Sequence record: LT603033
Source of the DNA: Escherichia phage vB_Eco_slurp01
Strand: one strand, 5' to 3'
Length of the DNA: 64,000 nucleotides
Part shown: positions 13,441 to 30,870 of the stretch, piece after piece
How the letters are laid out: the number at the start of each line of letters is the position of its first letter
How positions within the stretch are numbered: position 1 is the first letter of the stretch
Position numbers and translations under genes: made by a program
Notes under the pieces: model-generated
Told to the model about the DNA's origin: nothing
Database searches by the model: none
Seen by the model: the letters and a program-made list of their open reading frames with translations, nothing else

Positions 13441-14060
13441 ATTTTATTTTGTTTTTCCAATAGTTCCCCTACCGCGTGGGGATAGTTTCCCCGCAGTATC
13501 TGGAGTTAGATTTTTCTGAATCTGGAATCATTATCTTATAAACTGGGGGCAATGTCAACGACCTGGACGGATATTTTTAAAAATTTTTTCAGTACTGAAT
13601 TTTGGGCGTAACTATGCACCCGGTGGGCTTGAGTCTTTCTCGACTTGATGGAACTATTATACAGTACTGGAAAAATAAAGCAATACCCTGGATGAAAAAA
13701 GTTTTAATTAATTTGCTTGCCATCCTGGGCCGGACTATGGTACTATAATTCAGTACTGAGAAAGTGCGTTAACCTGCTAGGGTGCGGGAGTGTATCCTTT
13801 TTTTATATCTTGAATTTTGGACGGATCTTCCCACCCCCTGGGGTATCCGCTTTCTCGCGTCTATGTAGTAATTATACGCTTTTTCAGGATCAAGTCAATA
13901 CCTAAAAACAAAATAATTGAAAATAATTTAACGCGTTTAAACGGCCCGTAAAGCCCTGGAATGATTGGAATGGTGCAAATGTATAGCTTGGGTGTATTAA
14001 TGCGTTAGAATGCGTCTGAGGCCGTTTTACGGGGTGTAGTAGTGATTTGGTGGATTGATT

Positions 14061-14215
14061 CAGTACTGAATAATAGTACTCCTATATAGAAAGATAGTTC
14101 CCCTGGATGGTTGCAGTACTGAATAATAGTACTCCTATATAGAAAGATAGTTCCCCTGGATGGTTGCAGTACTGAATAATAGTTCCCCTATATAGAAAGA
14201 AAACTATTTTAAAAG
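14061..14215. repeat. Tandem direct repeat, 53-bp unit x ~3, immediately upstream of first early promoter
   Basis: CAGTACTGAATAATAGTACTCCTATATAGAAAGATAGTTCCCCTGGATGGTTG repeated. Confidence 0.85.
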
Positions 14216-14231
14216 TATTTGTAGAAAGTAC

Positions 14232-14259
14232 TTGCAAACTATGTTTAACGGCGTATAAT
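14232..14259 (+). promoter_or_regulatory. Early promoter, sigma70-like
   Basis: TTGCAA N16 TATAAT. Confidence 0.7.
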
Positions 14260-14272
14260 GTTTTACATCGAG

Positions 14273-14291
14273 AGCGGGAACACTTCCCGCT
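14273..14291 (+). other. Promoter-proximal hairpin (AGCGGGAA-CAC-TTCCCGCT)
   Basis: 8-bp stem immediately downstream of predicted start site; member of the recurrent hairpin class. Confidence 0.6.
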
Positions 14292-14314
14292 ACATATTAC
14301 GAGAGATTAAAACG

Positions 14315-14677
14315 ATGGCGACTCAAATCACTAAAATTATTGCTAACCTGGTTAACTTTCGCGACGAGATGAAAGATCTTCCGGCAGAAACGGTAAAAAT
14401 TCACATTGCAGCTTATCGGGAACTTATTGCAATGTTACCTCTTAAGCGTGAACAATACGCCGCTACCGTGATGCTTGATGCGATGATCCATAAGATGATC
14501 GCCAGTGATTTAACGATGGTTTATCAGTATATGGGCGAAAATTTCGCGGTGTATAGTAAACCAGTACCAGGAATGGAAAGTACAGAAGTATTACACGGTT
14601 TAAATTTAAAACAAGATGCATGGGATAATATGCCTCGTTTCCTGGTATGGGCTGACAGTGGCAAAATTTACGAATAA
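14315..14677 (+). CDS. Hypothetical early protein (120 aa)
   Basis: ORF 14258..14677 trimmed: upstream ATG lies inside the -10 element; GAGAGA RBS before MATQITK. Confidence 0.7.
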   Translation: MATQITKIIANLVNFRDEMKDLPAETVKIHIAAYRELIAMLPLKREQYAATVMLDAMIHKMIASDLTMVYQYMGENFAVYSKPVPGMESTEVLHGLNLKQDAWDNMPRFLVWADSGKIYE

Positions 14678-14691
14678 GTTTAATAAAGTAC

Positions 14692-14719
14692 TTGCAAACT
14701 ATGTTTAATGGCGTATAAT
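14692..14719 (+). promoter_or_regulatory. Early promoter
   Basis: TTGCAA N16 TATAAT; hairpin GTGGGGAA-TAG-TTCCCCAC at 14732-14750. Confidence 0.7.
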
Positions 14720-14770
14720 GTTTTACATCAGGTGGGGAATAGTTCCCCACTATATAAGAGGATTAAAAAA

Positions 14771-15010
14771 ATGGCTAAATCAAAAATGTTCTTAGGTCAC
14801 AAAAACAAAACTCATTGGAATGTAAGCCTTTGGATTAATAACGATGAATCATTATACCGGTTGGCCCTGGACTTTATTGCCGCCAATACTAATCGCAATG
14901 ATGCGGCCCGTCATATGATGTTATTTTTAGAACAGACTGGACAAGATAAAACACCGGACGGATTCAAATATAGCACTACTGCGATCCGTGCGGCAATGGT
15001 TGGAATGTAA
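14771..15010 (+). CDS. Hypothetical early protein (79 aa)
   Basis: ORF 14708..15010 trimmed to ATG after AAGAGGA RBS. Confidence 0.7.
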   Translation: MAKSKMFLGHKNKTHWNVSLWINNDESLYRLALDFIAANTNRNDAARHMMLFLEQTGQDKTPDGFKYSTTAIRAAMVGM

Positions 15011-15032
15011 TAGAATAGAATTTATTTAAAGT

Positions 15033-15061
15033 ACTATTGCACGGGGATAGTACTTTATAAT
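15033..15061 (+). promoter_or_regulatory. Degenerate early promoter (TATAAT present, -35 region shortened)
   Basis: Aligns with the promoter at 26483-26511 but has a deletion in the spacer. Confidence 0.4.
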
Positions 15062-15098
15062 AGTGTTTTATTCATACACCAACGATAAGGGCAACAGC

Positions 15099-15365
15099 AT
15101 GAATATTAAGTATTTTGCGACGCGTGAACAAGCTCGGATCGCCGCACGCCAGGACGGGGCAACGTTTAAAGATATGGGCGTACAATCGGAACGTGGTAAA
15201 CGTTGGGCCATTGTAAAGCGTAGTACCGCCAGATCATTACAGTACTGGTTAGCGGCCTTAAAAAGACCCGATAGTGTATCGCGACGAGTGGTAGAAATAA
15301 AGCTCGACCGAAAGGGCAACCGCGTGACCGTGTACCGTACTAAAAAGATTGCAGTACTTGAATAA
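15099..15365 (+). CDS. Hypothetical early protein (88 aa); paralog of 26556..26951
   Basis: Trimmed ORF; shared KYFATREQARIAAR...FKDMG...RKGNRVTVY. Confidence 0.7.
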   Translation: MNIKYFATREQARIAARQDGATFKDMGVQSERGKRWAIVKRSTARSLQYWLAALKRPDSVSRRVVEIKLDRKGNRVTVYRTKKIAVLE

Positions 15366-15373
15366 AAAGTACT

Positions 15374-15400
15374 TGCAAACTATGTTTAAAGGCGTATAAT
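15374..15400 (+). promoter_or_regulatory. Early promoter
   Basis: TTGCAA N15 TATAAT; hairpin GCGGGAA-CTC-TTCCCGC at 15415-15431. Confidence 0.7.
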
Positions 15401-15452
15401 GTTTTACATCGAGAGCGGGAACTCTTCCCGCCTATAACCTGGAGTAATAAAA

Positions 15453-29266: not shown

Positions 29267-29454
29267 CAGTTGAAGAAGTTAAAAAAGTACTGGCAGTACT
29301 ACGCTATCATAACCATTGCAAGGTTAAGAATGATCCTGATTATGTTGATTCATCCCTGGAGGAAGACACATTAAACGCAATAAGCCATATGCAAACATTA
29401 GCAAAGCGTATGACCGAAAAGAATAGACCGGACTATATCGGAAATAAAATTTAA
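29263..29454 (+). CDS. Hypothetical protein (63 aa)
   Basis: ORF track; ATGA overlap. Confidence 0.6.
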   Translation: MTVEEVKKVLAVLRYHNHCKVKNDPDYVDSSLEEDTLNAISHMQTLAKRMTEKNRPDYIGNKI

Positions 29455-29461
29455 AAAGTAC

Positions 29462-29489
29462 TTGCATTGTAGTTAGATTAACGTATAAT
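29462..29489 (+). promoter_or_regulatory. Early promoter
   Basis: TTGCAT N16 TATAAT; hairpin GCGGGGGAA-TAG-TTCTCCCGC at 29502-29522. Confidence 0.7.
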
Positions 29490-29540
29490 GTTTTACATAG
29501 AGCGGGGGAATAGTTCTCCCGCCAGTCCGGGAGATACACC

Positions 29541-29807
29541 ATGAACACTATCGAAATCACTATCAATGCACACGTATACGACAACGTAGTACTGCAAACT
29601 ACTATGACCGCTAATGATACCAGTACTTTGCGGAATACCGTTGTAAGTGCTGTATGTGCTGCAATCGGTGATGTAGCCCTGGAAAATGCAGAACACATCA
29701 ACAACGGTTTCACTATGTGCAAACGTGATAACGCAAAACATATCATCTTAGAAGGTTACGGCGGTGTAGAATATAATCTTTATATGAAAAAAGTACTTGC
29801 AAAGTAA
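29541..29807 (+). CDS. Hypothetical early protein (88 aa)
   Basis: ORF track. Confidence 0.7.
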   Translation: MNTIEITINAHVYDNVVLQTTMTANDTSTLRNTVVSAVCAAIGDVALENAEHINNGFTMCKRDNAKHIILEGYGGVEYNLYMKKVLAK

Positions 29808-29824
29808 CTAAAACAAAGTATAAT
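29797..29824 (+). promoter_or_regulatory. Early promoter
   Basis: TTGCAA N16 TATAAT; hairpin GGGGGAG-ATATC-CTCCCCC at 29835-29853. Confidence 0.7.
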
Positions 29825-29872
29825 GTTTTGCATAGGGGGAGATATCCTCCCCCACTAATAAGGAGTACTAAA

Positions 29873-30097
29873 ATGGCTAACTTTGATGAACTGATGCGGG
29901 AAGTAGCTAACCTGGCAGAAGAGAAGAAATCATTCGATTCTATCTATAACACCGCTTACAGTGATTCAGTACTGGCATGTACTCAGGATCAAAAAGATGA
30001 ACTAATCGCCACATATCATGAAGCATGGAAGTACTACCGCCAATGGGAGAAAGAAGAAAGCGAGTCTACCATCAACGGCATCAATAATCTAATCTAA
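29873..30097 (+). CDS. Hypothetical early protein (74 aa)
   Basis: ORF 29828..30097 trimmed to MANFDELM after AAGGAG RBS. Confidence 0.7.
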   Translation: MANFDELMREVANLAEEKKSFDSIYNTAYSDSVLACTQDQKDELIATYHEAWKYYRQWEKEESESTINGINNLI

Positions 30098-30115
30098 AGT
30101 TTTATTTCAGTACTA

Positions 30116-30144
30116 TTGACATAGCTTGATAGTACTGATATGAT
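30116..30144 (+). promoter_or_regulatory. Early promoter (no-hairpin class)
   Basis: TTGACA N17 TATGAT. Confidence 0.65.
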
Positions 30145-30172
30145 AACTTTACTAACTACAAGGGGAAACATC

Positions 30173-30430
30173 ATGGAACAATTCACACAATATCGGGTAA
30201 ATCCTCAAGCTATGGCCTACGTAGAAGACCATAAAACGTTACCAGTACTGCAACCAGTTAAAGGCCATATCTATCGTGCGATGGCGTGGAGTACTGCCCA
30301 GGATGGCTATAAAACCGTTGCCGTTGGTATGTACTGCGGTAATGGTGAATGGTTTGATCCAAATAATCCGGTAGCAATTGACAGTACTGAAAAAATGAAA
30401 TGGGCCGACTACATCGAAGATATTTCATAA
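30173..30430 (+). CDS. Hypothetical early protein (85 aa)
   Basis: ORF 30140..30430 trimmed to MEQFTQY. Confidence 0.65.
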   Translation: MEQFTQYRVNPQAMAYVEDHKTLPVLQPVKGHIYRAMAWSTAQDGYKTVAVGMYCGNGEWFDPNNPVAIDSTEKMKWADYIEDIS

Positions 30431-30437
30431 AAACTAT

Positions 30438-30465
30438 TTGACAGTACTAACCAGTAATGTATAAT
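30438..30465 (+). promoter_or_regulatory. Early promoter
   Basis: TTGACA N16 TATAAT; hairpin 30478-30498. Confidence 0.7.
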
Positions 30466-30520
30466 GTTTTACATAGAGCGGGGGAATAGTTCTCCCGCCA
30501 ATAGTTTGGAGTAAAACATT

Positions 30521-30721
30521 ATGTCTATCGCTCTCGCCCTGGTTGAAGTACTGAAAGAAGCTAAAGCCAACCTTATCGATGTACAGATTAAGGAATTGCA
30601 AAATGGTTTAATCGGCTGTACTTGTACCGCTGGTGGAGCGGCAGACTATCGAGAACACGAATCACTAGAATCGTTGGTCCGGTATCTTACAATCATCGTA
30701 GAAGATTGGAGAATCATCTAA
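30521..30721 (+). CDS. Hypothetical early protein (66 aa)
   Basis: ORF track; TGGAG RBS. Confidence 0.7.
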   Translation: MSIALALVEVLKEAKANLIDVQIKELQNGLIGCTCTAGGAADYREHESLESLVRYLTIIVEDWRII

Positions 30722-30725
30722 CAAA

Positions 30726-30870
30726 AAAGAATAAAAAAGGGATTGACTCCGGTCAGTCCCTTTGCTATTATATACGCATAGACAAAAACTAGCCCACAGG
30801 GTGCATAGGTGTATCTAAAATATATAGTTAATAACGGTGAGTAACTATCTGCTGGTGGAGTGAAAACTAT
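30726..30870 (+). repeat. Repeated intergenic module, copy 4
   Basis: Hairpin + TTGACT-N17-TATTAT, CCCACAGGGTGC, Chi octamer at 30851. Confidence 0.7.

Follow-up and report, generated by a model that had tools for sequence, protein, structure and literature searches.

The terminal region of the Escherichia phage vB_Eco_slurp01 (sequence record LT603033) raises the question of what a 12-bp motif, CCCAYNGGGTGC, recurring between its genes, is there for. A preliminary description of the stretch analysed here (64,000 nucleotides, hereafter the window, whose coordinates are used throughout) had presented it as occurring in both orientations and, because of its partial palindromy (CACC...GGTG), as a possible target of a dimeric DNA-binding protein. 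Our analysis showed that the motif, hereafter the box, keeps a single orientation behind one class of promoters, is invariant throughout a lineage of jumbo phages, and is flanked by sequences that vary under RNA-type constraints. We consider it most likely that the 12-mer functions at the RNA level rather than as a DNA target of a dimeric protein. More tentatively, we favour on sequence grounds the reading that the box would be the recognition surface of a family of immediate-early sibling RNAs, either leaders or small RNAs.

A 12-bp box linked to one class of promoters

A pattern search detected nine exact copies of CCCAYNGGGTGC in the window (13616-, 15768+, 15825-, 17354-, 21654+, 23318+, 25257+, 28530+, and 30793+, the sign giving the strand) against 0.01 expected from dinucleotide shuffles, none of 100 shuffles reaching nine, so that the recurrence of the motif is real. 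A position-weight scan built from the 61 related units described below returned the same nine copies plus two degenerate ones, 13774+ (CTGCTAGGGTGC) and 13831- (CCCAGGGGGTGG), and no further CCCAYNGGGTGC-like site scoring anywhere else in the 64 kb. Every site lies between genes, as had been proposed, and most of the positions first given were correct within 0–11 nt, the copies placed at 28519 and 17348 being located at 28530 and 17354 (minus strand); the site "near 13776" corresponds to the degenerate copy 13774+, and the minus-strand copy 13831- had been overlooked.

Related units were collected from phages RaK2, 121Q, GAP32, CBB, and Yersinia phage fHe-Yen9-04 and from metagenomic jumbo contigs, giving 47 non-redundant units, a number that rose to 61 after a second scan of viral contigs with the loose pattern TTGAC-N43-54-box, whose matches were mostly single chance ones and from which only jumbo-phage loci were retained, after a promoter re-screen. 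All of the 47 units, and likewise those of the 61-unit set, showed a TTGACA/T hexamer, a 16–18 nt spacer, and a TATAAT-like -10 ahead of the box, which always had the same orientation relative to this promoter; the two orientations seen in the window thus reflect promoters on both strands. Collapsing the repeated modules did not remove the signal, as 47–61 non-redundant units, drawn from six or more phage genera, all have the same 12-mer apart from positions 5 and 6, while the adjacent positions hold little information; therefore, the enrichment is not an artefact of recent module duplication. A sequence logo of 60 distinct rows showed C1 C2 C3 A4 and G7 to C12 as invariant, position 5 as C or T, and position 6 as mostly A, with a purine at position 0 preceded by YUA, and RGARR followed by U18 G/C19 Y20 R21 U22 C23 Y24 A U on the downstream side.

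The box starts either 20–22 nt (13 units, short leader) or 25–29 nt (34 units, long leader) after the -10, the distances seen being 20, 21, 22, 25, 26, 27, 28, and 29 nt, and a 9-nt spread of this kind fits poorly with a stereospecific DNA contact. If transcription starts at a conserved A ~7 nt past the -10, as predicted, the box would occupy approximately +14 to +34 of the transcript.

All the 11 units of the window are held in the direct terminal repeat (DTR) of the genome (12519..32218, ~19.7 kb), which would provide ~22 units per packaged genome. The limits of the DTR were deduced from the records of phages vB_Ec-M-J and BF17, which start at window 12519, and from that of JP4, in which 32218 is joined directly to 12519; a DTR is also annotated in OQ718158. 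Two promoter classes were distinguished within it. Gene promoters (P2) consist of (A)AGTAC-TTGCAA/TTGACA, 16 nt, TATAAT, rTTTTACATC, a 5' hairpin (GGGGAGAA..TTCTCCCC), a ribosome-binding site (RBS), and ATG; they are present at nearly every small gene, ten of them show 12/12 consensus positions, and none carries a box. Box promoters (P1) have a 17-nt spacer and either CAGTACTG within it or a 12-bp terminator-like hairpin around the -35 (class B), and they are never found immediately upstream of an RBS, being followed by a P2 promoter or by no gene. An A-rich sequence precedes the promoter in all box units. The class-B units (21592, 25200, 28468, and 30736) carry a G/C-run stem-loop with 12-bp stems, and units of the same class were found in RaK2, CBB, and GAP32; those of class A (15714, 23261, and the minus-strand units) have no adjacent stem-loop of this type.

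Regarding its distribution, blastn with one unit recovered 58 records only, all of them from RaK2-like jumbo phages of Enterobacterales, and the module was detected in every enterobacterial RaK2-like jumbo phage sampled, as one 15–20 kb cluster per genome. The window from 13000 to 31500 itself matched, by megablast, Escherichia jumbo phages of the genus Asteriusvirus (121Q, PBECO4, G17, vB_Ec-M-J, and others), one of its box units being 100% identical to phAPEC6. No box within one mismatch was present in the 39-kb repeat of the Pseudomonas relative PA5oct, and a search for the box plus its 3' block in 185,579 bacterial and archaeal species genomes gave 31 matches, compared with ~70 estimated by chance, and none in Enterobacterales. 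Rfam returned nothing at gathering score in the window, and its four chance-level hits between 13400 and 31200 (E up to 5) did not fall at any unit. In addition, a full-text literature search with the motif strings retrieved unrelated primers only and no earlier description of the box, which is not mentioned in the papers on CBB, PA5oct, or Sharanji; a further search, on Asteriusvirus transcriptomics, yielded no relevant result.

Constraints on the leader and candidate roles of the box

The structural evidence in the predicted leader is strong for a hairpin upstream of the box (H1) and suggestive for the box itself. In the 33 distinct long leaders, H1 lies 3–5 nt upstream of the box and is built from 21 different stems, such as UGGC/GCCG, UGAG/CUCA, GACG/CGUC, AGACA/UGUCU, ACCAC/GUGGU, and GCCAG/UUGGC (combined p ~2e-7, Fisher, over distinct stems), closing purine-rich loops that end in AA (GCGAAA, GAGAAA, AGAUAA, AGAACAA). 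The box can adopt either of two folds. Fold A is a CCC/GGG mini-hairpin whose loop corresponds exactly to the variable box positions; it is the consensus given by RNAalifold, and position 0 is A or G in 58/60 units, either of which pairs with U10 (A-U or G-U). In fold B, the 3' block YRUCY is wobble-complementary to GGGUG (G7-Y24, G8-C23, G9-U22, U10-R21, and G11-Y20), with 291 of 300 cells paired (97%) against 29–72% in slid registers; positions 20 and 21 show only pair-keeping transitions (G-U/G-C and U-A/U-G), and position 24 behaves likewise in 57/60 units. Folds A and B are mutually exclusive and of similar energy (mean -3.8 vs. -3.2 kcal/mol), B being more stable in 35 of the 60 units.

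Several other candidates were rejected. Long-range pairing between the 5' end and the 3' block, or a pseudoknot with the H1 loop, was found in some units and inconsistently across the family, an elemental pause (G8G9...U18G19) fits only the majority class (G19 in 33/47 units), and the box plus TGTATC as a -35 substitute or activator box lies at 11–28 nt (by eye) from the nearest -10-like hexamer. Mutual information across units revealed neighbour effects only.

These constraints bear on whether the box could be an operator in duplex DNA, in which the 12-mer, maybe with the TGTATCT block, would be bound at approximately +14 to +45 by a phage or host protein that shuts off, roadblocks, or otherwise controls P1. 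The dimeric form of this idea is not supported, as CCCA-YN-GGGTGC, the pattern that is conserved, lacks inverted-repeat symmetry: the CACC..GGTG symmetry is limited to the CCGG variants of the box, position 5 varies between C and T without compensation at position 9, and G7 and G8 are invariant although a CAC-N3-GTG dyad would leave both free. The lack of a fixed distance from the -10 (20–29 nt) and the location of the box within the predicted transcript also speak against a dimeric-protein site. An operator without dyad symmetry is still supported by the twelve near-invariant base pairs, typical for a protein-DNA site, by a position just past the start site that suits a repressor or roadblock, and by the convergent unit pairs (13774+/13831- and 15768+/15825- in the window) that recur at a spacing of 57–75 bp in 121Q, CBB, and the contigs labelled here L003, L016, L020, and L119, and its fixed orientation might have been inherited with the cassette. 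However, changes in the 3' block are restricted to those that keep wobble pairing with GGGUG, which would be meaningless in duplex DNA, the adjoining H1 is kept as structure and not as sequence, and no candidate DNA-binding regulator stood out among the conserved genes of the repeat, so we regard an operator as unlikely. The other suggestion made for inverted pairs, a long RNA hairpin, was borne out in the special case of 15768+ and 15825-, whose boxes pair as a 12-bp stem in the read-through RNA (fold of 15749–15850, -38.5 kcal/mol, z = -5.0).

The orientation of the units relative to the genes, which lie almost wholly on one strand, bears on their role. Thirty-three units are co-oriented with the genes and 18 are anti-oriented (18/51). 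In at least four phages, anti-oriented units are followed, 36–40 nt past the box, by a predicted canonical GC-rich terminator with a U-rich tail, which would yield ~100-nt RNAs (17354- in the window, 9801- and 2733- in RaK2, 2621 in L014, 10009- and 898- in L016, 4501 in L020, and 4677- in L003). None of the co-oriented units showed a GC-rich terminator at that distance. Taken together, the occurrence of units in either orientation, the presence of terminators behind antisense copies, and the absence of a directly following gene are most simply explained if the short 5' RNA is itself the functional product or tag, with the 12-mer as its recognition surface.

In the sibling-RNA reading that we favour, the host sigma-70 RNA polymerase would make, from the very strong P1 promoters, a transcribed module of ~45–50 nt (an "early leader box") composed of a 5'-A start, an optional H1 with its purine-rich loop, a YUAR linker, CCCAYNGGGUGC, RGARR, and U-G/C-Y-R-U-C-Y. 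The box RNA would either form the R-CCC/AYN/GGG-U hairpin or pair its GGGUG with the downstream YRUCY and, since both folds are weak, it is probably read by a partner, which may be a conserved protein or RNA. As the box stays the same in phage genera whose repeats have little else in common, this partner would not be a co-evolving one, and it is thus probably a host component. The units would therefore be stand-alone RNA genes or leaders that bind or titrate the partner, and in the co-oriented copies the box would likewise tag long early mRNAs at their 5' end. A further step, that the ~22 promoters per genome supply sibling immediate-early RNAs that, through their box, capture or reprogram a conserved component of the host (RNA polymerase, the ribosome, an RNase, or an RNA chaperone) ahead of any phage protein, is possible, and we put it forward with more doubt than the sibling-RNA family as such.

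Several points weigh against the sibling-RNA reading. Start sites, 3' ends, and abundance of the box RNAs are all predicted, and the fixed orientation could be simple inheritance with a duplicated cassette. Both box folds are marginal, single leaders are no more stable than their shuffles (z -0.3 to -2.0), and, because the 5' strand of the box never varies, true double compensatory changes are absent from both box helices and the shuffle control is uninformative. A Y-R-Y-Y-Y block opposite GGGUG would be found by chance once in 32 per register, that is ~0.3 times over ~10 registers by our own estimate. No complement of the box was present above chance in the window, and no obvious RNA-binding protein or informative domain was found among the conserved repeat proteins. 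Finally, the co-oriented units, lacking a terminator, would read into genes, so that only some members of the family would qualify as small RNAs.

The box could also be explained as a cis-acting elongation signal, in which the nascent leader would reprogram RNA polymerase so that transcription from P1 resists pausing and intrinsic or Rho-dependent termination throughout the repeat, as HK022 put or the nut and rrn leaders do. The succession of H1, with its purine-rich loop, and a conserved linear box resembles the boxB-boxA order of the rrn leaders; moreover, the class-B units follow right after terminator-like hairpins, other terminators lie downstream (26974), and an invariant host polymerase as partner would account for the absence of drift. 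A leader directly after early promoters is also the arrangement of putL (PMC9378689). Nevertheless, 18/51 units face against the genes and several meet a terminator ~40 nt on, read-through is unneeded because almost all genes are served by a consensus promoter of their own, the leaders do not show the two long stem-loops that make up the ~70 nt of put, and there is no boxA or ops at the units, which makes an elongation signal somewhat less probable than an operator.

The units might instead be origins, with an R-loop primer like those of T4 oriF/oriG, or a passive homology patch for a shuffling of cassettes like that of the promoter-early stem-loops (PeSLs) of T4-like phages, and we consider both improbable. 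The phage belongs to the T4 superfamily and its units are intergenic, orientation-independent promoter units with AT-rich DNA after them, yet a sequence box is not known to be needed by T4-type origins. Repeated promoter cassettes do mark homology breakpoints in the DTR, as described for PeSLs (PMC2839356, PMC4122927); however, in comparison with five Asteriusvirus relatives, 23 of 45 homology breakpoints fell in box-less P2 cassettes (7.7 expected, p = 2e-7) and none of the 45 in box units (2.7 expected), and an invariant 12-mer between flanks diverged across genera rules out hitch-hiking.

Weakest of all, and very improbable, is a translated minigene that would act by loading or sequestering ribosomes or by exhausting a tRNA, with GGGUG or GGAG as Shine-Dalgarno sequence, a start codon at 17–19, and a tiny open reading frame (ORF), often M-Y-L-stop: ATG, GTG, or TTG is found at exactly 17–19, five nt past GGGUG, in 31/47 units, with a three-codon ORF (NUG-UAU-CUA-stop or a one-nt variant) in 13 and start-stop in five, but 16/47 units have no usable start codon, the ORF length ranges from 1 to >18 codons, and what is conserved is the nucleotide sequence, including third positions, without any synonymous pattern.

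If the sibling RNAs act on the host as proposed, they would constitute an RNA-based first step of host takeover; a box that binds a host factor would represent a novel type of device for host takeover by phages as well as a novel RNA family, and a mere promoter-proximal signal would still mark a clade-wide immediate-early regulon and help annotation, the units being at present unannotated or miscalled as ORFs or terminators. RaK2-like jumbo phages (of Escherichia, Klebsiella, Salmonella, Yersinia, Cronobacter, Pectobacterium, and Erwinia) are developed for therapy and biocontrol, and their early programme is essentially unstudied. Two terminal-repeat promoter classes were separated here, one of them with an invariant, RNA-constrained leader, and an RNA of ~50 nt with a single 12-mer offers a handle for tests.

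The units of the window and their setting in the terminal repeat

The first box unit (13601..13683, minus strand, long leader) shows a TTGCTT-16-TATAAT promoter, an AGUC/GACU H1, the box at 13616–13627 (CCCACCGGGTGC), and a 3' block ..ACGCCC; it is directed to the left genome end, with no ORF after it. Next to it lie two degenerate and convergent units. The plus-strand one (13717..13800) has a weak promoter (site 13717–13746) and the box-like CTGCTAGGGTGC at 13774–13785 (position-weight score 13.1), followed by GGGAGTGTATCC; the minus-strand one (13816..13898) has a TTGACT-16-TATAAT promoter (13898–13871), a CGC/GCG H1, the box variant CCCAGGGGGTGG at 13831–13842, and the 3' block GATCCGTCC. 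A second convergent pair is formed by unit 15714..15794, in the same direction as the genes, with promoter TTGACT-17-CATAAT, CAGTACTG in the spacer, H1 UGGC/GCCG, box at 15768–15779, and 3' block GTGTATCTAT, and by the short-leader unit 15810..15886 on the minus strand, with promoter TTGACA-17-CATAAT and box at 15825–15836. The unit at 17290..17422 (minus strand, promoter 17422–17394, H1 GAC/GUC, box 17354–17365, 3' block GATCCGTCT) ends in a predicted bidirectional terminator, CGGGGAG..CTCCCCG (17293–17313), with a U-rich tail, and its predicted product is a ~100-nt non-coding RNA antisense to the gene direction.

The remaining units are on the plus strand. Class-B unit 21592..21680 carries the hairpin AAAGTGGTTGAC-TTCG-GTCAGCCATTTT around its -35, a TATTAT -10, H1 UGAG/CUCA, the box at 21654–21665, and 3' block GTGTATCTAT, and an ordinary gene promoter comes next, at 21722. 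Unit 23261..23344 (promoter TTGACA-17-CATAAT, CAGTACTG in the spacer, H1 GACG/CGUC, box 23318–23329, 3' block ATGTAACTGT) is upstream of a promoter at 23377 and of a gene for a DksA/TraR-like protein (23588–23845). The class-B, short-leader unit 25200..25283 has the hairpin AAAGGGATTGAC-TCCG-GTCAGTCCCTTT over its -35, the box at 25257–25268, and 3' block ATGTATCTAT, followed by a Chi site at 25288 and two gene promoters. The same -35 hairpin is found in unit 28468..28556, also of class B but with a long leader (-10 TAATAT, H1 UGAG/CUCA, box 28530–28541, 3' block GTGTATCTAT). Finally, the class-B, short-leader unit 30736..30819 includes a hairpin at 30736–30763, its promoter at 30743–30771, the box at 30793–30804, and 3' block GTGTATCTAA, with a Chi site downstream at 30851. 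A 114-aa minus-strand ORF (30718–31062) overlaps the last box, and its tblastn "homologues" in five genera are due to the conservation of promoter and leader DNA and not to a gene; hypothetical proteins annotated across box units in some relatives are probably miscalls too.

Among the genes of the repeat, the conserved ones (27014–27268, 23588–23845, 15099–15365, and 26547–26951) include a protein with a ParE-like toxin domain and the DksA/TraR zinc-finger protein (23588–23845), encoded directly downstream of the box unit at 23318. In addition, two paralogous phrog_8127 proteins, the first of them strongly basic (net +14), are common to RaK2, GAP32, CBB, and Yen9-04.

Between 12800 and 31000, ~35 near-consensus plus-strand sigma-70 promoters were counted, roughly one per small gene, each followed by ACATC, the GGGGAGAA..TTCTCCCC hairpin, and an RBS. 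The hexamer AGTACT is present in 264 copies in the 64 kb (~21 expected), most densely at 8000–32000 and nearly absent from 32–36 kb and 40–48 kb, and CAGTACTG in 55 copies (~0.6 expected). Within promoters, AAGTAC is located directly before the -35 and AGTACTG directly before the -10, and AGTACT is also found after box leaders; being a true palindrome, it would suit a dimeric regulator better than the box does. A second conserved non-coding leader of ~80 nt, ACAUCAGGACGGGGAAC...CUCCCCUGAUAAAAUAG, with a long-range closing stem, was detected between two tandem gene promoters in at least three copies (15960–16045, 25345–25435, and ~18270–18350).

The first ~1.7 kb of the repeat (12519–14257) contain no credible gene, a gap of ~2 kb being likewise present in 121Q. 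Promoters converge in this region (12784+ and 12884+ vs. 13558-, 13683-, and 13898-), which also includes a CAGTACTG..CAGTACTG hairpin at 13049–13082 and three 53-nt tandem repeats at 14051–14209. Read on the minus strand, the sequence at 13305–13432 is an 8-nt periodic array of ~16 units with consensus AGCCGTCY/AGCCATCY, located ~800–900 bp from the left genome end and conserved in five further genomes of Asteriusvirus; the pentamer YRTCY at its core is shared with the 3' block of the box leaders. Could this array be a terminus, packaging, or origin site?

Chi (GCTGGTGG) is present in nine plus-strand copies in the terminal repeat against 0.11 expected (13116, 19002, 22975, 24020, 25288, 27636, 29051, 30629, and 30851), and in none elsewhere in the 64 kb, with one inverted copy (13104-) ~590 bp from the left end. 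In other genera, some box-promoter spacers (L002 9801-, L014, L016, and L020) likewise include Chi or its complement, and the distribution looks like a shielding of linear genome ends against RecBCD. To the left of the repeat, ~25 tightly packed plus-strand ORFs of 59–88 aa, plus one of 223 aa, occupy 7528–12519, many of them with abutting or overlapping stop and start codons, and are preceded by six large minus-strand ORFs of 369–433 aa (258–7443); the GC skew changes sign at ~12 kb.

The terminal repeat of PA5oct has been described as an early, host-polymerase-dependent region with abundant non-coding RNAs (PMC7318152), and the paper on CBB reported RpoD-like promoters with UP elements in the corresponding region, with nothing described downstream of them (PMC5259590).

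Comparison with known systems

The PeSLs (Arbiol et al. 2010, PMC2839356; Comeau et al. 2014, PMC4122927) share with the box units the repetition of near-consensus sigma-70 early-promoter cassettes, AT-rich upstream, among small ORFans in a plastic early region. Their G-run/C-run stem-loop terminator has a terminator-like counterpart in the class-B units and none in those of class A, the A3G3...C3T3 hairpin of class B being like that of the PeSLs of nt-1. Unlike in the box units, no invariant transcribed box is described for PeSLs, and in the class-B units the hairpin encloses the -35. A PeSL-type recombination joint was rejected for the box units, where no breakpoint fell (0/45); as the breakpoints avoid them and fall in box-less cassettes, the gene-promoter cassettes are the better analogues of PeSLs.

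HK022 put (PMC9378689) resembles the box leader in being a cis-encoded RNA after an early coliphage promoter, where host polymerase acts and no phage protein is needed. However, put measures ~70 nt and folds into two long stem-loops with a triplex, whereas the box leader has an H1 of 3–5 bp and a marginal hairpin of 4–7 bp; put is co-oriented with its operon, and the box units, promoter-proximal in all cases, are antisense to the genes in 18 of 51. No sequence similarity between the two was found, although putL itself was not part of the comparison. The lambda nut and rrn leaders are similar to the units in the order of promoter, small purine-loop hairpin, conserved linear box, and GU-rich block. 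No boxA ((Y)GCTCTT(T/A)A) was found within or near the units, the matches in the window being all elsewhere, and the RfaH ops core GGCGGTAG had one window match, at 30041 on the minus strand, outside the units. In contrast to nut, no N-like arginine-rich protein or peptide was found in the repeat, and the orientation and terminator context of the units speak against antitermination.

Qrr1-5 and the CsrB-type sponges are sibling multi-copy bacterial small RNAs (sRNAs) with a shared invariant region. The box units resemble them in their many paralogous short units, each with its own strong promoter, one invariant 5' stretch, and a diverged rest, and a subset of the units, with intrinsic terminators, is likewise predicted to produce ~100-nt RNAs. 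They differ from sibling sRNAs in being phage-encoded, immediate-early, and located in a terminal repeat, with two thirds of them lacking a terminator and running into mRNAs, and the resemblance is one of architecture only. We therefore file the box units as akin to a promoter-proximal leader RNA or a sibling small RNA, without assigning them to any of the families compared.

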